From: Candidatus Giovannonibacteria bacterium RIFOXYD1_FULL_48_21
Lineage (GTDB): Bacteria; Patescibacteriota; Minisyncoccia; JACPKW01; UBA11713
Length of the DNA stretch: 64,000 nt
Direction: 5' to 3'
Assembly (NCBI GenBank): GCA_001778985.1
Contig: MFIU01000002.1
Coordinates: 57,826-121,825 of the forward strand
Positions 2,152-46,772 of this stretch are shown here, in pieces (the stretch's first letter is position 1; every line of letters starts with the position of its first letter). The notes beneath the pieces were generated by a model, which searched no databases, was not told the origin of the DNA, and saw nothing but the letters and a program-made list of their open reading frames with translations. The translations under genes and the position numbers were made by a program.

Positions 2152-3108
2152 ATGCTCGATTTTTTAGTTTTCATTGTTTCGTTTTTTATTTTGAGCTGGG
2201 CCGGAGGAAGTTTGGTGAAGTCCCTGACTTCGCTCGCGCGGCTCTTGAAAGTTTCCGAGTACTTGATGGCATTTTTTCTGGTAAGTTTCGCGACCTCGAT
2301 TCCGGAACTTTTCGTGGGCATCAGCTCGGCCTGGAAGGATATTCCGGCTTTTTCTCTGGGCAATGTTCTGGGCGCGAATATCATCAACGCGACCTTAATT
2401 TTAGGGCTGGTGGCGATTTTGGCGAACGGCATCAGCATCGAGCGGAAATTTTCCAGAAAAACTTTTCTGGCGGCTTTTGGCATGGGAATTCTGCCTTTAT
2501 TTTTCGCCTGGGACGGCGTTATCAGCCGTTTTGACGGCTTCCTGTCGCTCGCGGTATTTTTATTGTATCTGGTTTATATCTCCAGAGAGCGTGAATATTT
2601 TTCAGAAGTTTTTAATAACGCCTCCAGACTGCCCGCAGTTTTTATTAAAGATTTTTTTGCCGGCCTCGGCGCGTTCGTTTTGGCCCTGGCGGCTCTGCTT
2701 TTTAGCGCCTTCCTGCTGGTGAATACCGGCCAGAAAATAATCGGAATGTTTTCTATCTCGGCTTTCGTCTTCGGCGCTCTCTTGGTCGCGCTCGGCACCA
2801 CTTTGCCGGAGCTGATTTTCGGTCTCAAAGCCGTAAATCTGAAGCACGGCGCCATGGCTGTGGGAAATTCTTTGGGCTCAATCGTATTTAACGCTTCCTT
2901 TGTCGTAGGCGTTGTCAGCTTGATTCGGCCCATCGAAGTCGTCCGGGACGAAAATTTCATGCTCTCGGCCGCTTTCGTTTTCTTGGCTCTTCTCTTCTTT
3001 TCAGTTTTTACCTCCACCAAATCGCGCCTGGAGCGGGAGGAGGGAGTTTTTCTGGTGCTTCTATACCTGGTATTTTTCTTCAGCCAGTATTATCTTTTAA
3101 TCAAATGA
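2152..3108 (+). CDS. Ca2+/cation antiporter (CaCA family, YrbG-like)
   Basis: About 10 transmembrane helices. Two alpha-repeat motifs: GNVLGANIINATLILG and GNSLGSIVFNASFVVG. Confidence 0.75.
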   Translation: MLDFLVFIVSFFILSWAGGSLVKSLTSLARLLKVSEYLMAFFLVSFATSIPELFVGISSAWKDIPAFSLGNVLGANIINATLILGLVAILANGISIERKFSRKTFLAAFGMGILPLFFAWDGVISRFDGFLSLAVFLLYLVYISREREYFSEVFNNASRLPAVFIKDFFAGLGAFVLALAALLFSAFLLVNTGQKIIGMFSISAFVFGALLVALGTTLPELIFGLKAVNLKHGAMAVGNSLGSIVFNASFVVGVVSLIRPIEVVRDENFMLSAAFVFLALLFFSVFTSTKSRLEREEGVFLVLLYLVFFFSQYYLLIK

Positions 3109-4148
3109 CCACAGCGTTATTAATTCTGATCGGAGCGCTAATCGGAGGAATTGCGGCCTATTTTATTTTGTTGAGAAAACGCCCAGAGAGCGGCGAAGGG
3201 CTTTTAATGTTACAGAACCAGATGAATGAGCTAAAGAGAGAGCTCTCTGGGAAGCTAGACCTTAGTTTGGGACAATCAACGAACATTTTACAGAAGCAGC
3301 ATAGCGAATCGTTAAAAACCGCACGGGAACTAACCGAAAAACTTACAAAGCTGGATGAAACGAATAGACAAGTTGTTAATTTTGCAACGCAATTGGATAA
3401 ACTCCAGGACATCTTAAAAAATCCGAAGCAGAGGGGGGTATTCGGGGAATATTTTCTAGAAACGCTTTTAAAAAATGCATTCAACCCCAAAGATTACCAG
3501 ATGCAGTATAAGTTTAAAGATGGGGAGATAGTGGATGCGGTTTTATTTTTTGGAGACAAAATTATACCCATAGATTCGAAATTCTCGCTTGAGAATTATA
3601 ATAGGCTGGCCGAGGAATCGAATTCAGATTACCGTGCAGAACTCGAGGTCCAATTTAAAAATGATTTGAAAAAAAGGATCGATGAGACTTCCAAATATAT
3701 TCGCCCCATGGAAGGAACAACGGATTACGCATTTATGTTTATACCCGCAGAGGGCATTTACTATGACCTTTTGGTAAACAAGGTTGGTGCGGTTAAATCC
3801 AACACTCGCGATTTAATTGACTATGCTGTTAATGAGAAGAAAGTGCATATTGTCTCGCCAACCACATTTTATGTCACTCTGCAGGCAATGATTGTTGGTA
3901 TGCGCACATATCAGATTCAAGAATCAACAAAGGAAATATTGAAAAATATCGGCCAGTTAGAAAAGCATCTGCGTGCATTTGGAGAATATCATCTTAAAGT
4001 TGGCTCAAATTTAAATACGACCGTTAATTCGTATAACAGCGCATCTAAAGAGTTTACGAAAATTGATAAGGATATCGTGAAGTTAAATGGCGGGGGAATT
4101 GAGTTAGAATTGCCACTAATTAACAAATCCTTAACTGACGCCGATTGA
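3105..4148 (+). CDS. rmuC: DNA recombination protein RmuC
   Basis: N-terminal TM helix, coiled coil, and the conserved RmuC core GVFGEYFLETLLKNAF...DAVLFFGDKIIPIDSKFSLENY. Confidence 0.75.
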   Translation: MTTALLILIGALIGGIAAYFILLRKRPESGEGLLMLQNQMNELKRELSGKLDLSLGQSTNILQKQHSESLKTARELTEKLTKLDETNRQVVNFATQLDKLQDILKNPKQRGVFGEYFLETLLKNAFNPKDYQMQYKFKDGEIVDAVLFFGDKIIPIDSKFSLENYNRLAEESNSDYRAELEVQFKNDLKKRIDETSKYIRPMEGTTDYAFMFIPAEGIYYDLLVNKVGAVKSNTRDLIDYAVNEKKVHIVSPTTFYVTLQAMIVGMRTYQIQESTKEILKNIGQLEKHLRAFGEYHLKVGSNLNTTVNSYNSASKEFTKIDKDIVKLNGGGIELELPLINKSLTDAD

Positions 4149-4179
4149 CTTATAAACTCTTAAAATATATACTATTTCC

Positions 4180-4500
4180 ATGTCTAAATTCGCGGTAATC
4201 AAAACCGGCGGCAAGCAGTATTTGGTAGAGCCGGGGATGAAACTAAAAATCGAAAAACTCCCGCCGGGAAAAGACGAGACAATTGATTTTAATGAAGTCT
4301 TGCTCGTCGGAGAAGGGGAGAGTCTTGAGATTGGGAACCCTCTTGTAAGGAACGCGAAAGTCGCGGCCGAATGCATTCAAGAAGGCAAAGGTAAAAAAGT
4401 TATAGTGGCGCGCTACCACTCCAAAACCCGCTATTACAAGCGCCGCGGCCACCGCCAGCCCTTTACCGAGGTTTTGATAAAAGAGATAGTTGCGAAATAA
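4180..4500 (+). CDS. rplU: 50S ribosomal protein L21
   Basis: MSKFAVIKTGGKQYLVEPG is the L21 signature. 106 aa. Confidence 0.9.
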   Translation: MSKFAVIKTGGKQYLVEPGMKLKIEKLPPGKDETIDFNEVLLVGEGESLEIGNPLVRNAKVAAECIQEGKGKKVIVARYHSKTRYYKRRGHRQPFTEVLIKEIVAK

Positions 4501-4526
4501 AACTAGGTTTGCTAGAATGTGTTTGG

Positions 4527-4770
4527 CGTGGAAACGGTAGGGTCGCTAGGAAGCATTACGGGAGTTCGACTCTCTCGGCCGGTCCAAAAGTGAGGTCGGT
4601 TTGTGCAGGATAGGTGGGAGGCATTGAAGCGGAGGCGCTAGTTTCCAGGGAGCCAACCTTGAAATACCACCCTTGCCGATTGAACCCTCAGCCTCGGCCT
4701 TAAGCTCAAAACTGAGACTTGCGGATTCCATGCCTAACGCGGGGAGCGTCATCCGACCTCCCCGCGAAAT
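4527..4770 (+). ncRNA. 23S rRNA domain V-like fragment (H75-H79 / L1-stalk region), sense orientation, ending in a GC-rich hairpin
   Basis: Positions 4597-4672 read GGTCGGTTTGTGCAGGATAGGTGGGAGGCATTGAAG...GGAGCCAACCTTGAAATACCACCCTTG. They align at about 84% identity to E. coli 23S ~2105-2180 (GUGUAGGAUAGGUGGGAGGCUUUGAAG...GGAGCCGACCUUGAAAUACCACCCUU). The flanks show weaker H75/H79-like similarity. A hairpin GCGGGGAG..CTCCCCGC lies at 4739-4768. A possible TAGAAT -10 element is at 4512-4517. Confidence 0.5.
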
Positions 4771-4811
4771 TATTATAGTAACTCACGATCGTGACATATC
4801 ATAATCATTTC
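4768..4811. promoter_or_regulatory. Left copy of a duplicated operator/promoter module (palindrome TCACGATCGTGA + TATAAT-like box)
   Basis: Direct repeat, about 25/29 identical, with a copy at 5397-5440. Contains the perfect palindrome TCACGATCGTGA. On the minus strand the palindrome is followed by GTTAC-TATAAT. Confidence 0.45.
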
Positions 4812-4830
4812 ATTATATCTATTTCATTCG

Positions 4831-5388
4831 TCAGACTATATGGAAAGCTCGTTTAATTTTGTAATCATTGTCCAAGCTGGCCTCGGCGTATATCACAAAG
4901 GATTTTAAATTAAAGAAATGAATAACAAATTCAATCTCTTTTTTGCAATCGTACGGCCAAAGGAAAACGCTTTTTTGTAATTCGTAACATCCCAGCTCTT
5001 TTAACTTTCTTCTTAGGGCATCCCGGCTGCGTCTTTTAATTTCAGGGATATCAAAAAGTATCAGACGCCACTTACCATCCCAACGGCCCTGAACCGGAAG
5101 TTCCAGCTCAGAAAAATCTAATTTTTTAAGATACTCCCTACCCCTCGGCGTAATAAAAATTCTAACTTCATTCTTTGAAACTTGTTTATGTTCAATAAAA
5201 CCTCGTTTCTTAAGAGAACGAGAGAGGCGATAGATATGTTCGCGCTCTAGTTTTCGCCACTCTTTTGGCACAGATTTTAAAAGGCGGAAGTAGTGCCGGG
5301 GAGTAGGTGAGAGTCCTAAGGATACGCCCAGGGCCAACAACCAAAGAAATCTCTTCACCCAAATGTTTTTCGGCATCCGAATTTTCAT
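4831..5388 (-). CDS. PaaX-family transcriptional regulator (short form: wHTH + PaaX C-terminal Cas2-like domain)
   Basis: WDGKWRLILFDIPEIKRRSRDALRRKLKELGCYELQKSVFLWPY matches the PaaX core WDGxWxLxxYxIPExxRxxRDxLRRxLxxLGFGxLxxSVWISP. N-terminal winged-helix segment. Confidence 0.6.
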   Translation of the reverse strand: MKIRMPKNIWVKRFLWLLALGVSLGLSPTPRHYFRLLKSVPKEWRKLEREHIYRLSRSLKKRGFIEHKQVSKNEVRIFITPRGREYLKKLDFSELELPVQGRWDGKWRLILFDIPEIKRRSRDALRRKLKELGCYELQKSVFLWPYDCKKEIEFVIHFFNLKSFVIYAEASLDNDYKIKRAFHIV

Positions 5389-5396
5389 ATTTTTAA

Positions 5397-5440
5397 AAGA
5401 TTATATTACCTCACGATCGTATCATATAATAATCTTTTTT
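5397..5440. promoter_or_regulatory. Right copy of the operator/promoter module, immediately upstream of the paaX-like start
   Basis: Minus-strand reading is ACGATCGTGAGG-TAATATAAT-11nt-ATG. This fits an autoregulated promoter with a short or absent leader. Confidence 0.5.
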
Positions 5441-5451
5441 AGTAACCTTAA

Positions 5452-6060
5452 TTATTTTCTGTTTTCTAGGGCGTGCTTTAGGGTATCACGGTCGGAGTAT
5501 TCGAGTTCCGTGCCGGTGGAGAGGCCGCGGGCGAGATTCGTGATTTTTATTTTGCGTTTTTTGGCGAACCCTTCCAGCAGTTCTTCAATGAAGCGACGAG
5601 TCATGTCGCCCTCGGTGGTGGCCGAGAGTGCGAGAATCACCTCTTTAATCTCGTCGGAAATCTCCAGTTTGGTTTTGAGCTCTTTTAGACGGAGTTTTTC
5701 TTTTTTTTCGGGCTTCAGGGGGGAGAGTAGTCCGCCCAAGACGAAATATTTCCCTTCATAGATTTGGTTTTTCTCGAGATTTTCCAAGTCCGCGTCTTTT
5801 TCCACCACCAGCAATTTGGAATCATCCCGAGAGGAACTCTGGCAAATGCCGCAGAGGGTGGATTTTCCTGAAAAAATTCGGAAGCACTTGCCGCAGCGCG
5901 AAACTTCTTCGTTTAATTTTGAAATAAGCTCGGCGAAATCTTTAAGAAATTTCCGGTCTTCTTCCACCAAGGCGTAGACAAATCTCCGGGCTTGCCTGGG
6001 GCCAATCCCGGGCAAGCGCTCAAAATATTCCACCAGTTTGTGAATTATCGACTCGGACAT
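5452..6060 (-). CDS. recR: Recombination protein RecR
   Basis: HhH motif LPGIGPRQARR, C4 zinc finger CGKC...CGIC, and Toprim domain. Confidence 0.9.
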   Translation of the reverse strand: MSESIIHKLVEYFERLPGIGPRQARRFVYALVEEDRKFLKDFAELISKLNEEVSRCGKCFRIFSGKSTLCGICQSSSRDDSKLLVVEKDADLENLEKNQIYEGKYFVLGGLLSPLKPEKKEKLRLKELKTKLEISDEIKEVILALSATTEGDMTRRFIEELLEGFAKKRKIKITNLARGLSTGTELEYSDRDTLKHALENRK

Positions 6061-30874: not shown

Positions 30875-30951
30875 TGGTGGACCCGAGCGGCTTCGAACCG
30901 CTAACCTCCCGAGTGCAAATCGGGTGCTCTAGCCAATTGAGCTACGGGCCC
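30875..30951 (-). tRNA. tRNA-Ala (anticodon TGC), CCA encoded
   Basis: Reverse complement is GGGCCCGTAGCTCAATTGGCTAGAGCACCCGATTTGCACTCGGGAGGTTAGCGGTTCGAAGCCGCTCGGGTCCACCA. G3:U70 identity pair. Anticodon loop TTTGCAC. Confidence 0.75.
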
Positions 30952-33279: not shown

Positions 33280-33495
33280 GAACAGCTAGATGCAGTTTGT
33301 AGATTACTAACGTAGGTTGGGGAAGCAGGTGTAAATCCTGCGCAGTGCCGCTACGGTGATTCGTTCTTCGAACGATAAGTCCGATGGCCAACCCTGCATT
33401 GTTTATCTTTTATCACCCTCGAGCAAGGGAAAGCCGTATTTTTAGCGTTTATCCATCTTCAAAACCCGCTCGAGGCGGGAATTTTTATTTTTTAA
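33280..33495 (+). promoter_or_regulatory. Cobalamin (AdoCbl) riboswitch with intrinsic terminator expression platform
   Basis: Core GGGAAGCAGGUGUAAAUCCUGCGCAGUGCCGCUACGGUGA matches the Cbl riboswitch consensus GGGAAgccGGUGaaAaUCCggCaCgGuCCCGCCACUGUaa. B12-box-like AAGUCCGAUGGCC (E. coli btuB has AAGCCCGAAGACC). Terminator CCCGCTCGAGGCGGG + AATTTTTATTTTTT at 33465-33493, just upstream of the 33509 start. Confidence 0.65.
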
Positions 33496-33508: not shown

Positions 33509-35092
33509 GTGAATAACATAAATAAAAAATTACTCCGGCTGTTTGTTCTTTTGTCGCTCGGCGCGCTGGCGTTCCTGCAGCTGAATTTAGCCCGGGGAGA
33601 CGTTAATTCCGCCTTGGTTTACCTCAAAACCAAAAGTCCGAATCCGTGGATAACTATGGCGCTGGTAGCCGCCGGAGAGAGTCCGGATGTTGATTATCTG
33701 AAATCGACTACCGGCGCCAGCGCCACCGATTACGAAGCCCCTATTTTGGCCTTGGCCGCAGCCGGAAAGAATGCACGGACATTTCCTGACACGGATTTGG
33801 TCGCGGCACTCAAGGCTTTTCACGCCGGAGGGCAAATCGGTAGCGCCTCAACTTTGAATGATGATATCTTCGGGGTTCTTGCTCTCCTTGCCTCTGGAGA
33901 ACCGGCGAGCGACTCGGCCGTAACGGATGCAAAAAACACCATCCTCAACAACCAGAATGCTAACGGCGGCTGGCCGTTTGCGGTAGGCGGCAATCCTGAC
34001 ACCAACATGACTGCGATGGCCATAATGGCCTTGATTTCGGCCGGAGTAGACAAAACTGATTCGCATATAGTAAACGCGGTTAATTACCTAAAATCGGCCC
34101 AGAATGACGACGGCGGGTTTCCTTATGATCCGGTAAGCCCGTGGGGAACAAACTCGGACGCGTCTTCGGATGCCTGGATTATCTCGGCGATAAGTAGCGT
34201 TGGTGAGGACCCGGATGGTTCAAGTTGGAGCAAAAACGGCAATAGCCCGGTTGACCATCTAATGTCTTTACAGGCCGATGGCGGATACTTTGAGTACCAA
34301 GAAGGCACGGGAGAGGATTCCTTTAGTCCAGTAACCACTTCTTACGCGGTAATTGCTTTAACGGGAAAGTATTATCCAGTGGGAGCAACTTCTTTTCCTG
34401 CAGTCCCGAATGTAGACTATAAAATCGAAGGAAGCACCGGGACGATTTGTGAAGGGAGCGTGAATGCTCCGAACGCGCTCAATTTAGTTGTGATTATCGC
34501 CCCAACTTGCGGCTTCACTTACGAGATAGTGGATACTTCTTTCGGGCCTTATCTGAAGAGAATAAACGACGATGAGGCGCACGACTTAGTCGGCTGGCTT
34601 TACGCGGTTAATTTCGTTCTGCCGAACATCGGTGCGGCCGACTATGACCTGGAAAACGGCGACTACGTTATCTGGCACTTCGGCAACTTTAACTGGCAGC
34701 CGGGCGGGGCCGAACTTAATTTGAGCGCCAATGTTCTCCCGGGAACGGGAGACGGAGGAGGAGGAGACGGCGGCTCCATATCTTTTACCGTTAACGTTTT
34801 GGGAGGAGGAAACAATTTGGGCTTTGGAGACATTGTTCCGGGAGCCCTGAAGTCGCAGGATATAGTGATTGTCAATAACGGTAATGGTTCTATCTACATA
34901 GAAAGCGCCGTAAGCGGAAATGAAGTATTCAGGGACTTCTTAAACATTGACGGGATTTCCTGGAGAAATTTCAGCCTTAACTTATCCGAGGGTGAAAGCG
35001 ACGAATCCGAAGTCAATCTGCAAGTGCCTTCTTCTTACTCCAAACCCGGTTCTAAAACTGGCAAGCTTATATTCTGGGCAACGGCAAACTAA
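33509..35092 (+). CDS. Secreted transcobalamin/intrinsic-factor-like protein: alpha/alpha-toroid repeats + DUF4430 (TC-like beta) domain + C-terminal beta-sandwich
   Basis: Signal peptide. Three QxxxGG(W/F/Y) toroid repeats (NQNANGGWPF, AQNDDGGFPY, LQADGGYFEY). DUF4430-like segment GWLYAVNFV...GAADYDLENGDYVIWHF. Gly-rich linker. Ig-like tail. Confidence 0.55.
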   Translation: MNNINKKLLRLFVLLSLGALAFLQLNLARGDVNSALVYLKTKSPNPWITMALVAAGESPDVDYLKSTTGASATDYEAPILALAAAGKNARTFPDTDLVAALKAFHAGGQIGSASTLNDDIFGVLALLASGEPASDSAVTDAKNTILNNQNANGGWPFAVGGNPDTNMTAMAIMALISAGVDKTDSHIVNAVNYLKSAQNDDGGFPYDPVSPWGTNSDASSDAWIISAISSVGEDPDGSSWSKNGNSPVDHLMSLQADGGYFEYQEGTGEDSFSPVTTSYAVIALTGKYYPVGATSFPAVPNVDYKIEGSTGTICEGSVNAPNALNLVVIIAPTCGFTYEIVDTSFGPYLKRINDDEAHDLVGWLYAVNFVLPNIGAADYDLENGDYVIWHFGNFNWQPGGAELNLSANVLPGTGDGGGGDGGSISFTVNVLGGGNNLGFGDIVPGALKSQDIVIVNNGNGSIYIESAVSGNEVFRDFLNIDGISWRNFSLNLSEGESDESEVNLQVPSSYSKPGSKTGKLIFWATAN

Positions 35093-36602: not shown

Positions 36603-37349
36603 ATGGAAAAAATACAAAAAGCTATATTTTGTTGGAGTGGAGGGAAAGACTCTTCGTATTGCTTGTACAAAGTTTTAACGGAAAAATTATTCGATGTGAA
36701 GTATCTGCTTACTACCATCAATGGTAAATTTAAAAGAATTTCAATGCACGGAGTGAGGGAAGAATTATTAGATAATCAAGCCGAATCAATCGGCATTCCG
36801 CTCTTGAAAGTAAGAGTAACCGAAGGCACAAATGACGAGTACGAAAAACAAATGGAAACAGTTTTGCTAAAAGTAAAATCGGAAGGAATCAACAATGTAA
36901 TCTTTGGTGATATCTTTTTGGAAGGTTTAAGAATATACCGTGAAAATAATTTAGCAAAGGTGGGAATGAAAGGAATTTTTCCAATATGGAAAGTAAGCAC
37001 AACAAATCTCTTAAATGATTTTATCAACCGACAATTCAACGCTGTGATATGTTGCGCCAATGACGGATATCTTGGAGAAGAATGGATAGGAAGGGAAATA
37101 GACAAATCATTTATAGAACAATTACCTGCTACTGTCGATCCTTGCGGAGAAAACGGAGAGTACCACACGTTTTGTTATGATGGACCTCTGTTCAAAAAGA
37201 AAATCAGTTTTACGGTGGGTGAAAAAGTTTATAGAGCACTGGAAATAAAAACAGACGATGTTTGCACTCTGCCATTAAATGTGACAACAAAGGGATTTTG
37301 GTTTTGCGATTTATTATCTAAACCGACCAGTGGACGAGGGAGGATTTGA
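36603..37349 (+). CDS. PP-loop ATP pyrophosphatase, Dph6/MJ0570 (DUF71) family
   Basis: CWSGGKDS PP-loop and the GENGEYHTF motif typical of the diphthine-ammonia ligase-like family. Confidence 0.7.
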   Translation: MEKIQKAIFCWSGGKDSSYCLYKVLTEKLFDVKYLLTTINGKFKRISMHGVREELLDNQAESIGIPLLKVRVTEGTNDEYEKQMETVLLKVKSEGINNVIFGDIFLEGLRIYRENNLAKVGMKGIFPIWKVSTTNLLNDFINRQFNAVICCANDGYLGEEWIGREIDKSFIEQLPATVDPCGENGEYHTFCYDGPLFKKKISFTVGEKVYRALEIKTDDVCTLPLNVTTKGFWFCDLLSKPTSGRGRI

Positions 37350-37405
37350 ACCTCCGACCCCGTCATTATCAGTGACGTGCTCTAACCAGGCTGAGCTACT
37401 CGTCC
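37331..37405 (-). tRNA. tRNA-Ile (anticodon GAT)
   Basis: Reverse complement is GGACGAGTAGCTCAGCCTGGTTAGAGCACGTCACTGATAATGACGGGGTCGGAGGTTCAAATCCTCCCTCGTCCA. Anticodon loop CTGATAA. Lies 3' of the 16S, as in rrn spacers. Confidence 0.7.
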
Positions 37406-37830: not shown

Positions 37831-37883
37831 CTCGGCCAACACCTTAATCAATCAAGTTTCGACCTAGACTTATAGTCTTAAAT

Positions 37884-39375
<1,492 letters not shown>

Positions 39376-39551
39376 GAATTTGAACGGGACAAAAGAGAAA
39401 ATTTCTTTTGTTTATTGTGTGTTCTAGATTTTTAATGTTCTGGCAAAATAAACCCGCGATGAGCTTCGCCTAAAAACCCATCGCGGATTTACTTCTTAAT
39501 TTTCAAGTTGTTTAAGCTGTCGTATACCTCATATTAATCCGCCCTACCTAC

Positions 39552-40413: not shown

Positions 40414-41145
40414 ACAAAACTGGCAAACATTCAATGTTCGCCATAATCTAATAAATACCCTTTTTCTAATTTTTCTTTGATGGGAGTATCCTCCACAAAA
40501 TTTCTATATTCATACCCATTTTCAAACTGCTCAAGTATAATCGGATTGCTCAAAAGTTGACCCCACCTATTTTCTTTAACAAAATCCTGAAAACTAGACC
40601 ACGGATATTCAATCTCTTTCCCTCTCCATTTCGCAAGTTCCCGTGGATTAAGGTGAATATAGGCCGAAAGATAATTTAGATATTCATTTTTATCTATGTG
40701 AATTGATTGAAATCGTCCGCCAAACAAATGACCGCTACGGCCATGACGCAAATTAAAGTACTTGGTATAAGCATCGGCCAGGCGCTGCATAAATTTCGAA
40801 ATACCGCCTTCTTGCGTTTCTTTCAAAATAAAGTGGAAATGATTGAGCATGAGGCAGAAGCAAATTAACTCAATTTTCCTATCTTTCAAAGTATCTTGAA
40901 AAAAATCAATGTCAAACCTTCGATGTTTGGCAAAAGGGACTAGACGAGAAATATGAGAATGAAATACGTCACCTTGAAACGCCATAAGCAAAGTTATAAA
41001 GCGCCATCTGTCTGCATCATCAATAAAGATTAAGCGTTTCTCAACACCGCGGTTATAAACGTGATAATATTCTCCTTCTCCTATGCGCCGGCTCATATGT
41101 TTATATTAATACACAACTGGCAAACATTGAATGTTTGCCAGTTTA
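40414..41145. mobile_element. IS200/IS605-family-like element 1 (HuH-Y1 transposase flanked by subterminal palindromes)
   Basis: Near-palindrome GGCAAACATTCAATGTTCGCC at 40423-40443 and perfect palindrome GGCAAACATTGAATGTTTGCC at 41119-41139. Both are preceded by AACTGG and sit in the same orientation. Confidence 0.6.
40431..41096 (-). CDS. tnpA: IS200-like HuH tyrosine (Y1) transposase / RAYT-like protein
   Basis: HuH motif LMLNHFHFIL. Tyr in SAYIHLNPRE. N-terminal GEYYHVYNRG. Paralog at 46059..46715. Confidence 0.65.
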   Translation of the reverse strand: MSRRIGEGEYYHVYNRGVEKRLIFIDDADRWRFITLLMAFQGDVFHSHISRLVPFAKHRRFDIDFFQDTLKDRKIELICFCLMLNHFHFILKETQEGGISKFMQRLADAYTKYFNLRHGRSGHLFGGRFQSIHIDKNEYLNYLSAYIHLNPRELAKWRGKEIEYPWSSFQDFVKENRWGQLLSNPIILEQFENGYEYRNFVEDTPIKEKLEKGYLLDYGEH

Positions 41146-44155: not shown

Positions 44156-44848
44156 TTAGTTCCAGCCCTTTAGTTTTAAGGCGGCCTCGGCGGCGCGCCT
44201 CTCCCCTTCTTGTTTGGAAGCGCCTTCGCCTTCGGCCACTAAATTTTTACCGAGATAAACCCCGACGATAAAATGTTTGTTGTGGTCCGGCCCCCATTCT
44301 TTCAGCACTTCGTAACTTGGGGTAAGGCCCGCTGTTTCCTGGGCTTTTTCCTGAAAGAGGCTCTTGGGGTCGCGGAAAAGTTTTTTGGAAATAACTTCTC
44401 CAGTCTTGGTCAGGACGTGTTTTTCAATAAATTTCTCGGCCGCCAGGTAACCCCGGTCGAGATAAATGGCGCCGATTAGAGCTTCAAAAGTATTGGCTAA
44501 AATATACTGCCGGGCTCGTCCCAAATCTTTGGCCTCTCCCCGCGACAATAAAAGATAATCGTTAAGCCCCATGTCTTGGGCGATTTCGGAAAGCATGTTG
44601 GCGTTCACCAAAGCGGCCCGCAGGCTCGTCAGCTCGCCTTCAGGTTTTTCCGGAAATTTCAAAAAAAGATATTCGGTGACTATCAATTCCAAAACCGCGT
44701 CCCCTAAAAACTCCAGGCGCTCGTTATGCTCGATTCCCCAGGCCGGATTTTCGTTCAAGTAAGAACGATGGGTGAAGGCTTCCTTAAGCCGGGTCTGATT
44801 TTTGAATTCTACGCCGATTTGATTTTCTAATTTCGAAAAATTGGTCAT
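44156..44848 (-). CDS. rnc: Ribonuclease III
   Basis: ERLEFLGDAVLEL RNase III signature and a C-terminal dsRBD. Confidence 0.9.
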   Translation of the reverse strand: MTNFSKLENQIGVEFKNQTRLKEAFTHRSYLNENPAWGIEHNERLEFLGDAVLELIVTEYLFLKFPEKPEGELTSLRAALVNANMLSEIAQDMGLNDYLLLSRGEAKDLGRARQYILANTFEALIGAIYLDRGYLAAEKFIEKHVLTKTGEVISKKLFRDPKSLFQEKAQETAGLTPSYEVLKEWGPDHNKHFIVGVYLGKNLVAEGEGASKQEGERRAAEAALKLKGWN

Positions 44849-45735
44849 GGTTTGATAAGCTTCAAAGCTTTAGTGAGCAGAGGTTTTATATCCGGATAAG
44901 TTTTTAGGCCCTCAAAATCTTCGGGCGCGAACCAGGCCGCGCCGTCCAAACCGCCGGAAGGAGCGAGTTTAAGTTCTTCATCCCTGGTTTCGCCTAAAAA
45001 ATAAATAACCCGGCGTCTCACCGGACCTTTTTCAGGGTCATTCGCCAGATATTCGGTCCGGCCCAACTCTGCTCCGAGCTCCAAACTCTCGATACCGAAT
45101 TCTTCTTTCACTTTCCGTTGCGCGGCCTGGAGGGCGTCTTCCCCAGGTTCCGGACTACCTTTGGACAAGGTCCAGTAGCCAAAGACGTCATGAACCAAAG
45201 CAAAAAGAATTTTTTTACCTTCTTTCCGAAAGACTACCGCGCCCGCTTTCTCTTCTATCGGCAGGTCCTCGAGGTTGGCCGGAATTTTTTTTCGGGAAGT
45301 TTCGTCCTTGCCCGGCTCGCCAATCTCGCGATAGACCGTGCCCAAAACTCCGTTTATGAATTTTCCGGACGAATCGGAACCAAAGGTTTTGGCGAGCTCA
45401 ATCGCTTCATTGATGGCCACCTTGGGCGGAACCTCCCGACGATTGCCGAACAAAAGTTCGTAAAGCCCCAGACGCAAAACGTTCCGGTCCACGAGCGCGA
45501 CCTGCTCCAAGGGCCATTCCGGAGCGGCCTTCTCAATAATCGAGTCAATTTTTTCTCGATTCTTAAGAACGCCCTCCACGAGCTCTTTCACGAAAGTTTG
45601 ATCCTCGAGCCCCGGCGCGAATTCCTTCACGTTGTGCCCCACAATCTTTCCAACCTCGCCGTCTTTCTTTCCCCCAAAATCCCATTCAAACAAAGACTGC
45701 ATTGCGAGGGAGCGGGCCAAATGCCTATTCGCCAT
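44845..45735 (-). CDS. nusB: NusB-NUDIX hydrolase fusion protein
   Basis: Residues 1-145 are NusB-like (ARSLAMQSLFEWDF...). The C-terminal half carries a Nudix box (GSPEPGEDALQAAQRKVKEEFGI). Confidence 0.7.
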   Translation of the reverse strand: MANRHLARSLAMQSLFEWDFGGKKDGEVGKIVGHNVKEFAPGLEDQTFVKELVEGVLKNREKIDSIIEKAAPEWPLEQVALVDRNVLRLGLYELLFGNRREVPPKVAINEAIELAKTFGSDSSGKFINGVLGTVYREIGEPGKDETSRKKIPANLEDLPIEEKAGAVVFRKEGKKILFALVHDVFGYWTLSKGSPEPGEDALQAAQRKVKEEFGIESLELGAELGRTEYLANDPEKGPVRRRVIYFLGETRDEELKLAPSGGLDGAAWFAPEDFEGLKTYPDIKPLLTKALKLIKP

Positions 45736-46039: not shown

Positions 46040-46772
46040 TTACGAAAATGTTGAACATTCAATGTTCAACAGCTAAGGCTCCTTCGAGCTTTTTTAAAGG
46101 CGTTTTCACGACGAATTCACGATATTCGTTGCCAGTATCGAATTGCCCAAGAATAATTTCTGGATTTAAAAAATTGCCCCATCTGTTTTCGTCAATATAA
46201 TCTCGGAAACTTGACCATGAATAGTTCACTTCATTGTCCCGCCATTTTTTCAATTCTCTTGGGTTAGCGTGGAGGTAAGCTGAAAGATGTCTAAGATAAT
46301 TATTGGTATCAATATGCCTCCGGTGAAATCTTCCGCCAAATAGATGCCCGCTCCGATCATAACGGGTGTTAAAATATTTAGTATAAGAATTGGCCAGACG
46401 TTGCATATATTTTGAAATACCTCCCTCTTTTACCTCTTGGGCAATCAAATGAAAGTGATTCGGCATTAAGCAAAAAGCTATAAGTCTAACATGTCGGTTT
46501 TTTAGAATCTCGCCAAACACCTCGTCATTAAATTTTTGATTCTGAACTAGTTTGACTATCCGCTTCATTGGGTTCAATATCTCCTCGCCCTGAAAACCGA
46601 TAAGCAAAGTCATAAATCGCCAACGGTCTCTGTCATCAAGAAATAGGGAGCGTTTTTCAACTCCCCGATTATAGATGTGGTAATATTCACCGACCCCAAG
46701 CCCACTCCATTTCATATAAATCCATTGTAGCGCCAAAATGTTGAACATTCAATGTTCAAATGTTCAACAAGT
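46040..46772. mobile_element. IS200/IS605-family-like element 2
   Basis: Perfect palindrome TGTTGAACATTCAATGTTCAACA at 46048-46070. A related copy at 46738-46770 flanks the transposase gene. Confidence 0.6.
46059..46715 (-). CDS. tnpA: IS200-like HuH Y1 transposase paralog
   Basis: CLMPNHFHLIA HuH motif. SAYLHANPRE Tyr motif. About 55% identical to 40431..41096. Start trimmed to the Met at MKWSGLG. Confidence 0.65.
   Translation of the reverse strand: MKWSGLGVGEYYHIYNRGVEKRSLFLDDRDRWRFMTLLIGFQGEEILNPMKRIVKLVQNQKFNDEVFGEILKNRHVRLIAFCLMPNHFHLIAQEVKEGGISKYMQRLANSYTKYFNTRYDRSGHLFGGRFHRRHIDTNNYLRHLSAYLHANPRELKKWRDNEVNYSWSSFRDYIDENRWGNFLNPEIILGQFDTGNEYREFVVKTPLKKLEGALAVEH

Follow-up and report, generated by a model that had tools for sequence, protein, structure and literature searches.

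Introduction

The L1 stalk is the mobile arm of the ribosome that escorts tRNA out of the E site, and the elbow of deacylated tRNA is its universal RNA partner. The stalk is copied outside the ribosome by the uL1 operators, which are found in the L11-L1 leader and in the L1 mRNA of Methanococcus. These operators are short, partial mimics of H77/H78 located in the 5′ untranslated region (UTR) of the uL1 operon, where they act in cis on translation. Here, we describe a copy of the complete stalk head (helices H76, H77, and H78 of 23S rRNA domain V) that is located in the 3′ UTR of rplU, the gene encoding ribosomal protein bL21, in the groundwater organism Candidatus Giovannonibacteria bacterium RIFOXYD1_FULL_48_21. 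The stretch of DNA that was analyzed, designated the window, consists of 64,000 nt (assembly GCA_001778985.1, contig MFIU01000002.1, positions 57,826 to 121,825, forward strand). The stalk head is embedded in a conserved structured RNA, predicted to be ~250 nt long.

The RNA resembles the L1 stalk of bacterial 23S rRNA in the identity of its helices and in the order of its elements (a closing helix, the stalk, and a second hairpin), and three of the four species harboring the full-length form retain the universally conserved loops AGGAUAGG(Y)GGGAGGC and UGAAAUACC. It differs from the ribosomal arm in that it is predicted to stand alone, with its own promoter and terminator, contains an insert of 45 to 170 nt, and occurs in few species. 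In comparison to the uL1 operators, which also copy H77/H78 outside the ribosome, the copy comprises the complete stalk head and is located 3′ of rplU instead of beside rplA, in a class reported to lack rplA. The predicted layout of the locus is that of 3′-UTR small RNAs (sRNAs), such as DapZ and MicL of enterobacteria, whose promoter lies within the terminal part of the preceding gene and which share the terminator of the mRNA. At the rplU locus, the predicted −35 box is located in the last codons of the gene, the −10 box is located just past the stop codon, and the terminator would be common to the mRNA and the sRNA. In contrast to sRNAs of the DapZ and MicL type, which act via short seed pairing with Hfq, the RNA is large and highly structured, and its conserved part is a folded rRNA domain.

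Two additional types of RNA invite comparison. The L1 stalk's head is the founding double T-loop module for docking of the tRNA elbow, a motif also present in T-box leaders and in RNase P (PMC3664808). The apex of T-box Stem I and the S-domain of RNase P contain two interdigitated T-loops of the same motif class as the head of the RNA, but they do so without ribosomal sequence and provide a second contact with the tRNA (the specifier codon or the CCA-binding site). The sequence of the RNA described here is itself ribosomal, and no second contact was found in it. Fragmented rRNAs, such as those of the Chlamydomonas mitoribosome (PMC8660880), also deliver an rRNA domain as a separate small transcript, encoded at a distance from the remaining rRNA genes. 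However, their pieces pair with neighboring pieces and are indispensable, whereas the RNA is closed by its own ends and has been lost from sister species. We found no description of a free-standing L1-stalk RNA in the literature and no Rfam family for such an RNA.

Results

An L1-stalk domain downstream from rplU

Scanning the whole window against Rfam at the gathering threshold (cmscan) revealed a match to the bacterial large-subunit (LSU) rRNA model, LSU_rRNA_bacteria (RF02541), on the plus strand downstream from rplU. The match covers positions 2127 to 2214 of the 2925 positions of the model, with a score of 57.8 bits for a gathering score of 50 (E = 1.5e-14). Helices H76, H77, and H78 are nested in the alignment, and their pairs are nearly all standard. 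An earlier note on this DNA, made by inspection of the letters, had put the similarity to 23S rRNA at about 84% over roughly 70 nt. This estimate was accurate since 58 of 68 positions (85%) are identical between window positions 4607 to 4674 and E. coli 23S rRNA. The identity reaches 47 of 49 positions if the variable helix H78 is omitted.

The LSU model delimits the similarity to H76-H78. The earlier note had also perceived H75- and H79-like similarity on either side of the stalk, which holds for the topology but not for the sequence. Neither RF02541 nor our own covariance model, R1, provided a significant 23S match in the flanks of the stalk, and the match of R1 to E. coli 23S rRNA was confined to model positions 33 to 100. 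The topology is that of the three-way junction formed by H75, H76, and H79. Helix P1 closes the whole RNA, its 5′ and 3′ ends pairing together in the minimum-free-energy folds of all five species in which the RNA was found (see below). The succession of P1/P2, the stalk, hairpin P3, and P2/P1 follows the 23S order H75, H76-78, H79, and H75.

The other RNAs detected by the Rfam scan were a complete 16S rRNA gene on the opposite strand (37883 to 39376), four tRNAs, and an adenosylcobalamin (AdoCbl) riboswitch. There was no second LSU match and no 23S rRNA gene in the 64-kb window, in agreement with the earlier note. A contiguous LSU gene (domains I to VI, or H73-H75 plus H79-H93) is absent from the locus, the stalk being flanked by rplU and by a gene for a PaaX-like regulator. 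The rRNA operon itself is broken: the 16S rRNA gene and tRNA-Ile (37330 to 37405) are followed by 6.4 kb of protein-coding genes and by tRNA-Ala (30875 to 30951, minus strand), and neither a 23S nor a 5S rRNA gene follows the 16S rRNA gene anywhere in the 64 kb.

Other classes of RNA were considered. With a permissive E-value, the Rfam search of positions 4100 to 5500 listed only chance snoRNA-like matches, the LSU match being unlisted there. A T-arm-like hairpin followed by CCA had suggested a tRNA or a tmRNA, including a permuted one. This idea was abandoned because ARAGORN detected no tRNA or tmRNA at 4500 to 4800 and because the hairpin is absent from two of the related loci (L099 and L107). 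Readings as RNase P, as 6S RNA, or as a Y-RNA-like molecule were rejected in the absence of any Rfam match, and the blocks conserved among the species are unlike the conserved regions of RNase P. Rfam provided no T-box match for the RNA either.

The RNA is found in a small subclade of Giovannonibacteria

Searches with the exact bL21 and PaaX-like proteins recovered the locus itself from many samples that had been assembled independently (ENA, Logan, and two GenBank metagenome-assembled genomes). Among species-representative genomes, the closest bL21 genes belonged to Candidatus Giovannonibacteria (62 to 69% identity). In three Giovannonibacteria loci (L013, L015, and L018), rplU is followed by recR, dnaB, and cysS on the opposite strand, with neither a PaaX-like gene nor an LSU fragment after rplU. 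Homologues of the PaaX-like protein (57 to 65% identity) led to uncultured relatives in which the PaaX-like gene is located between recR and rplU. The spacer separating the latter two genes, PaaX-like and rplU, contains the RNA in the L099 group (434 nt) and a diverged version of it in the L107 group (316 nt). The RNA is also present in L109, a locus found by a DNA pattern scan. The spacer of L094 (218 nt) contains a shortened RNA from which the stalk arm is deleted, that of L095 to L097 (96 nt) contains no RNA, and that of L093 (347 nt) consists of unrelated sequence. The full-length RNA is therefore found in four species (the window, L099, L109, and L107) and a deletion form in L094.

Searches outside this group were negative. 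Neither an LSU fragment nor a match to the covariance model was detected in 80 rplU loci of other bacteria, including six other Giovannonibacteria as well as Kerfeld-, Nealson-, Specht-, and Saccharibacteria. The covariance model revealed no second copy of the RNA in the window. A pattern scan for the conserved 3′ block returned one locus, L109, from metagenome_contigs and no match from viral_contigs. Among the loci compared, the RNA is thus limited to a small subclade of Giovannonibacteria, within which it has been both kept and lost.

Evidence for selection on the fold and on the sense strand

The identity of the core RNA to the window sequence is 81% in L109 and 75% in L099. In the same species, the coding DNA is 70 to 78% identical for rplU and 67 to 69% identical for the PaaX-like gene. 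Since a neutral spacer would be unalignable at such a coding distance, the conservation of the RNA counts as constraint. The blocks outside the stalk are among the conserved parts. CCGGUCCAAAAGU is invariant in the window, L109, and L099, except for one G/A position, and its CCRGUCCA portion is also found in L107. The region comprising ACUUGCGGA and UUCCAUGCC is invariant in the window, L109, L099, and L094, and UUCCAUGCC is also present in L107. Within the stalk, the double T-loop sequences AGGAUAGG... and UGAAAUACC are nearly identical to those of E. coli in the window, L109, and L099. They are altered in L107, where GGAUAGGU is replaced and AACCUU is missing. The H77/H78-like stem and internal loop, GGGAGGC...GGAGCC, which is the protein-binding part of the stalk in other bacteria, is kept in all four full-length variants, including L107.

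Covariation was assessed with RNAalifold on a structure-blind MAFFT alignment (A3) of the three most similar sequences (window, L109, and L099). Nine of the 61 predicted pairs were changed on both sides and still paired. H78 is fully rewritten among the three sequences (GGAGGC/GUUUCC, GUCUUGCU/GGUGAGAU, and UUUGCU/GGCAAG), and H76 displays a switch from U-A to C-G. The two-sided changes also include three pairs of P3 and one pair of the terminator. The outer stem of P3 reads CUUGGC/GCUAAG in L109, CUCGGA/UCCGAG in L099, and CUCAGC/ACUGAG in the window, where five of the six positions pair and the sixth is a C·A mismatch. For H76-H78, the Rfam structure, which is independent of the sequences compared, was also imposed on the MAFFT alignment: 87% of the cells paired, versus 32 to 47% if the partner was slid by 1 to 3 columns. 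Five two-sided pair changes were observed under this structure, and 3 of 500 shuffles attained this number. Pair counts from a model-fitted alignment (A4) were set aside since they were inflated, the rows for L107 and L094 being partly forced.

RNAalifold defines P2 as the pairing of UCC..AAGU with ACUU..GGA. This helix is predicted but not proven because its pairs never vary. A different P2 helix, GGCCGG/UCGGCC, appeared in the minimum-free-energy fold of the window; it is not kept in L109 and L099 and was dropped in favor of P2 and P3 as defined by RNAalifold. The insert that follows the 5′ strand of P1 is variable. In the window, a T-arm-like hairpin bearing a canonical T-loop is found within it (GGGAG-UUCGACU-CUCUC, 4560 to 4574), and the insert of L109 also contains a T-loop hairpin (AAGGG-UUCAAUU-CCCUU). 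L099 and L107 are devoid of such a hairpin, which is therefore not a conserved feature (two of four species).

In all four species with the full-length form, the sense strand folds more stably than the antisense strand, by 9 to 31 kcal/mol, and the stems of the RNA are rich in G-U pairs. Together with the orientation of the predicted promoter and terminator, these observations indicate that the functional molecule is on the plus strand. GenBank reports an ORF on the opposite strand, coding for the hypothetical protein A2757_02030. The related ‘proteins’ P0037 and P0038 are frame-shifted, and A2757_02030 is most likely a spurious antisense reading of the RNA rather than a gene.

Table 1. Features of the rplU–PaaX-like locus, with coordinates in the window.
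Feature	Position	Strand	Basis or comment
rplU (bL21)	4180..4500	+	Pfam Ribosomal_L21p, E = 3.5e-33; NCBIfam L21
Predicted promoter	4490..4518	+	Promoter scan: TTGCGA (4490-4495), 17-nt spacer, extended −10 TGcTAGAAT, TAGAAT (4513-4518)
P1, 5′ strand, GGCGUGGAAAC	4525..4535	+	Pairs with 4726-4734; H75 position; minimum-free-energy folds, five species
Variable insert	4536..4578	+	~45 nt in the window, up to ~170 nt in L099
68-aa ORF, hypothetical protein A2757_02030 (GenBank)	4546..4752	−	Antisense of the structured RNA
Conserved block CCGGUCCAAAAGU	4579..4591	+	UCC and AAGU form the 5′ strand of P2; pairs with 4717-4725
L1-stalk domain (H76, H77, H78 of 23S rRNA domain V)	4594..4681	+	RF02541, 57.8 bits
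P3 hairpin	4687..4716	+	H79 position; RNAalifold
ACUUGCGGA (P2, 3′ strand) then UUCCAUGCC (P1, 3′ strand)	4717..4734	+	Alignment
Intrinsic-terminator-like hairpin GCGGGGAG...CUCCCCGC (4739-4765) and U-rich tail	4739..4775	+	Kept in five species
44-nt palindrome, putative PaaX-like operator	4767..4810	.	Repeat and palindrome search; adjoins the RNA
PaaX-like regulator (winged helix and Cas2-like domain, 185 aa)	4831..5388	−	Pfam PaaX_M, E = 3.7e-21
Second palindrome copy	5395..5438	.	82% identical to 4767-4810; directly upstream of the PaaX-like gene

Relationship of the RNA to the rplU transcript

The earlier note had pointed to a possible TAGAAT −10 element on the strand of rplU. The promoter scan recovered this element as part of a consensus-level promoter and associated it with a −35 box, TTGCGA, located within the last rplU codons, and with an upstream TG. 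The −10 box, TA[AG]NNT, is conserved in position in the window, L099, L109, L107, and L094, although its spelling varies (TAGAAT, TAGGCT, TAAGCT, TAAGTT, and TAGTCT across the five species). A TG lies directly ahead of it in four species, L107 being the exception. A TTGCRA motif is present 17 nt upstream from the −10 box, inside the last codons of rplU, except in L094, where it is replaced by TTGATA. L095, which is devoid of the RNA, has GTCGCA at the place of the −35 box.

The strong hairpin that had been noticed at the end of the fragment was also recovered (GCGGGGAG...CTCCCCGC, 4739 to 4765). This hairpin and the tail that follows it form the first predicted terminator after rplU, with none between rplU and the RNA. 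The window hairpin, whose tail reads GAAAUUAUUAU, did not pass a strict terminator scan; the U-rich tails that follow the G+C-rich hairpin are better in the other species.

The position of the RNA is fixed with respect to rplU, the first conserved block, GGCRURGAA, beginning 30 to 31 nt past the stop codon in all five species. This constant distance, and the fact that every rplU transcript must carry the RNA in the absence of an intervening terminator, would be expected if the RNA were a cis-acting structure of the rplU mRNA, perhaps bound by a ribosomal or assembly protein with affinity for the L1-stalk region, that exerts feedback on the bL21 message or stabilizes it, without any function in trans. 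We regard this explanation as unlikely, although it is the most serious of the alternatives. The conserved extended −10 box just ahead of the first paired base suggests a separate transcript, most Giovannonibacteria have rplU without the RNA, and bL21 is not known to bind the L1 stalk.

The PaaX-like gene and its palindromes form a separate cassette

The gene that is convergent with the RNA encodes a protein whose AlphaFold2 model (mean pLDDT of 83) has as its best PDB match the PaaX protein of E. coli W (8a39, E = 3.9e-5), its C-terminal half matching Cas2 proteins. PADLOC detected no defense-system match for this protein beyond weak Cas2 domain matches (E = 4e-6 and worse).

According to the earlier note, the adjacency of the PaaX-like regulator and of a duplicated operator argued in favor of a functional element. 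This argument did not survive the comparison of relatives. In all species examined (for example, L095, L094, L098, and L103), the PaaX-like gene has a palindrome of 36 to 44 bp on either side, with a core that reads CACGATCGTG in the window and ACGCTATAGCGT in relatives (GATTA...ACGCTATAGCGT...TAATC). Since they are present in L095, which lacks the RNA, and in L103, in which the genomic context is different, the duplicated ‘operator’ belongs to the regulator cassette, and the copy at 4767 to 4810 is probably not part of the RNA. The arrangement suggests autoregulation from two operators or a mobile cassette. A promoter-like site directed to the minus strand is present in the palindrome (4797 to 4769), but it is no more than a match to the consensus, with no evident conservation. 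The regulator and its palindromes are a separate cassette, and we treat their adjacency to the RNA as unexplained rather than functional.

A strain variant of the locus was found in the JGI contig L110 (3300025015, positions 260 to 1707). The RNA is identical to that of the window and lies beside genes for a D12-class DNA methyltransferase and for a PaaX_M protein with DUF6996 in place of the N-terminus. As judged from this variant, recombination is active on the regulator side of the locus.

These data bear on the possibility that the RNA is a partner of the PaaX-like protein, as an antitoxin, a decoy, or a cofactor, the palindromes ensuring co-regulation, including antisense transcription. 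RNases are known among proteins of the Cas2 fold (VapD and some Cas2 proteins), the RNA is found only in genomes with a PaaX-like gene between rplU and recR, and the minus-strand promoter in the palindrome exists at the consensus level. We nevertheless consider a partnership improbable. The cassette and both palindromes occur without the RNA (L095 to L097) and in unrelated contexts (L103 and L111), the fold is that of the DNA-binding repressor PaaX, with Cas2 matches that are weak, and the position of the RNA is fixed to rplU instead of the PaaX-like gene.

Relics, split rRNA, and assembly artifacts

The earlier note had raised the possibility of a relic of a decayed rRNA operon. Under such a scheme, or if an rRNA fragment had been captured, the sequence would be neutral, in line with its patchy distribution and with the deletion derivative present in one lineage. 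This origin is quite improbable since the position, the promoter, the closing stems, the head, and the terminator are kept at a coding identity of 67 to 78%, with compensatory changes in the stems and a strand-specific fold.

A fragmented or scrambled rRNA gene, also envisioned in the earlier note, would imply that the ribosomal L1 stalk is supplied in trans by the RNA. Evidence relevant to this point came from one scaffold carrying the locus (L011, ENA ERZ28563557 scaffold_14958), in which a 23S rRNA from the same sample was captured. The scaffold contains the rplU-proximal RNA up to ...ACCACCCTTGCCG, followed by ten Ns and by 115 nt of 23S rRNA (1279 to 1393; ...GGAAGGACGAAAAGACCCCGTGAACCTTTACTG...) running through H74/H75 into the L1 stalk. 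The 23S piece rejoins the RNA at the shared CAACCTTGAAATACCACCCTTGC, the two having a 23-nt stretch in common. L011 is a mis-scaffold, caused by the stalk sequence that the RNA and the 23S rRNA share. Antisense ORFs 82 to 87% identical to the antisense translation of the piece were found on contigs of up to 5.4 kb. Since these ORFs run into conserved upstream 23S sequence, the L011 piece represents a genuine contiguous type of 23S rRNA. A search with the antisense ORF of the RNA led to P0039, which proved to be antisense to a genuine 23S rRNA from soil, and a scan of viral contigs with the L011 piece returned no match.

The L011-type 23S rRNA has an L1 stalk of its own, with a different H78 and with GUU/GAC in H77, whereas the RNA keeps the canonical GGC/GCC. 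Leaving out H78, the small RNAs of the window, L109, and L099 share 46 to 47 of 49 positions with E. coli 23S rRNA, for 43 of 49 in the case of the L011-type 23S rRNA, and the latter shares 42 to 43 of 49 positions with the small RNAs. The stalk head of the small RNA is therefore closer to the universal consensus than the stalk of the co-occurring 23S rRNA. Ownership of this 23S rRNA by the organism of the window is not proven. If it belongs to this organism or to a close relative, the ribosome does not depend upon the small RNA for its stalk, and the small RNA is neither a recent copy nor a product of gene conversion.

A trans-supplied stalk is thus very improbable. It would account for the sense orientation, the full H75/H76-78/H79 topology, the near-consensus head, and the presence in the window of a 16S but not of a 23S rRNA gene, in a group (the candidate phyla radiation, CPR) whose rRNA genes are unusual (PMC9297842). 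Against this, the RNA is self-closed and leaves no free strand for pairing with other parts of the 23S rRNA, the arm is deleted in L094, the RNA is absent from L095, and the head is non-canonical in L107. In addition, a contiguous type of 23S rRNA with its own stalk was captured in the same sample and recurs on contigs of up to 5.4 kb, and the 23S genes of Paceibacteria are reported to keep H78 (PMC12641178).

Assembly chimerism joining a 23S gene to the rplU locus, which L011 shows to be an error that the shared 23 nt can induce, is excluded for the window by the 100% identity and continuity of positions 4401 to 4900 in ten independent assemblies (ENA, Logan, NCBI, and JGI), by the same sequence in the JGI contig L110, and by the same arrangement at diverged orthologous loci of other species.

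The uL1 protein and the translation signals of the window

We take Giovannonibacteria to fall within the Paceibacteria of the GTDB classification. The class Paceibacteria is reported to be devoid of rplA and to keep H78 in its 23S rRNA (PMC12641178), and the OD1-L1 group of Parcubacteria was named for its lack of rpL1 (PMC5220378). The lineages devoid of uL1 largely coincide with those lacking the anti-Shine-Dalgarno sequence (PMC9297842). The 16S rRNA of the window ends with ...GGAGUUUCUCCUAA (37883 to 37910, minus strand), without the CCUCC anti-Shine-Dalgarno motif, and a Shine-Dalgarno-like motif was found in two of the 27 window genes checked. Neither rplK nor rplA was present among the window ORFs scanned against Pfam. 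A literature search on Giovannonibacteria and L1 provided nothing usable. Together, these observations suggest that uL1 is probably absent from the organism, which weakens the classical reading of the RNA as an L1 operator or decoy. Many genes of the window display a TAnAAT-like box 6 to 12 nt before the ATG codon, a pattern suggestive of widespread leaderless or near-leaderless mRNAs.

Other features of the window

Upstream from rplU, an RmuC-family gene (3105 to 4148, plus strand) gave a moderate PADLOC match to RTasRmuC of defense-associated reverse transcriptases (DRT; E = 2e-17). There is no reverse transcriptase nearby, and synteny of the gene is preserved at every Giovannonibacteria locus examined. 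The AdoCbl (B12) riboswitch (33295 to 33436, plus strand, 57.3 bits) is located upstream of the gene for a 527-aa protein (33509 to 35092) containing prenyltransferase/terpene-cyclase-like repeats and a DUF4430 domain, possibly a protein of B12 binding or uptake. Two ORFs for IS200-like Y1 transposases, 221 aa (40431 to 41096) and 229 aa (46059 to 46748) in length, both on the minus strand, are located a few kb on either side of an smc/rnc/nusB block; in both, the N-terminal 60 to 70 residues lie outside the Y1_Tnp match. Finally, a single 296-aa ORF (44845 to 45735, minus strand) encodes a fusion of a NusB domain with a NUDIX hydrolase domain.

Discussion

Our favored explanation, to which we assign a probability of roughly 0.55, is that the 3′ UTR of rplU contains a conserved lineage-specific structured sRNA of ~250 nt that acts as a decoy or mimic of the L1 stalk. 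The sRNA is predicted to span positions ~4525 to ~4775 of the plus strand and to be transcribed from its own extended −10 promoter, which overlaps the rplU stop codon. Read-through from rplU would necessarily also produce it, and both transcripts would end at the terminator-like hairpin and U-tract. According to the predicted fold, the ends would pair through P1 and then P2, enclosing a three-way junction from which the L1-stalk arm and the variable hairpin P3 would emerge. The RNA may have originated as an ancient duplicate of the H75/H76/H79 segment of 23S rRNA, in which sequence constraint was kept on the stalk head only.

The sRNA would present the surface of the L1 stalk off the ribosome, thereby binding and titrating a ligand of the stalk. 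By analogy with the ribosomal arm, a free stalk could dock tRNA. The likeliest ligand would be the elbow of deacylated tRNA or another stalk-binding protein, uL1 being less likely since it is reported to be lost in the class. A mimic of the L1-binding site derived from a 3′ UTR or an sRNA was among the options of the earlier note. The mimic is the option that the evidence supports, whereas its role as a decoy for L1 itself is doubtful in view of the reported absence of rplA from Paceibacteria (PMC12641178) and of the missing anti-Shine-Dalgarno sequence.

Several observations weigh against this explanation. The promoter and the terminator of the RNA are computational predictions. Only four full-length variants are available, and helices P2 and H77 never vary among them. 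The RNA is dispensable over evolution, being absent from L095-type genomes and having lost its stalk arm in L094. Part of the universal loops is lost in L107, where selection does not act on the full canonical stalk head. The absence of uL1 is deduced from the literature on the class and from indirect signs rather than from the organism's own genome. For a tRNA ligand, the lack of a conserved second tRNA contact in the RNA is a difficulty since, in the absence of such a contact, the double T-loop module on its own has a weak affinity for tRNA.

A more specific proposal is that, in a class devoid of uL1, the copy of the stalk acts in trans, either as an ‘off-ribosome E-site arm’ for deacylated or E-site tRNAs or as a platform for a protein that replaces uL1. 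We consider this proposal speculative and rather unlikely. If it holds, the canonical H77 of the RNA, in contrast to the drifted H77 of the co-occurring 23S rRNA, would reflect the reading of the RNA, and not of the ribosome, by the ligand.

At the practical level, the locus calls for caution in annotation since the 23-nt identity with 23S rRNA caused one mis-scaffold and the antisense strand was annotated as a hypothetical protein. Imitation of rRNA by regulatory RNAs is already known from the leaders of ribosomal-protein genes, in the form of short partial mimics. The novelty of the present case is the retention of a whole functional ribosomal arm as an independent conserved RNA, the transcript being predicted. 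If expressed, the RNA would be a natural example of an rRNA domain exapted as a small RNA and would offer a handle on ribosomes devoid of uL1 and on what still recognizes their stalk. If, in addition, the stalk copy acts in trans as proposed above, it would represent a new class of riboregulators built from an exapted rRNA domain.

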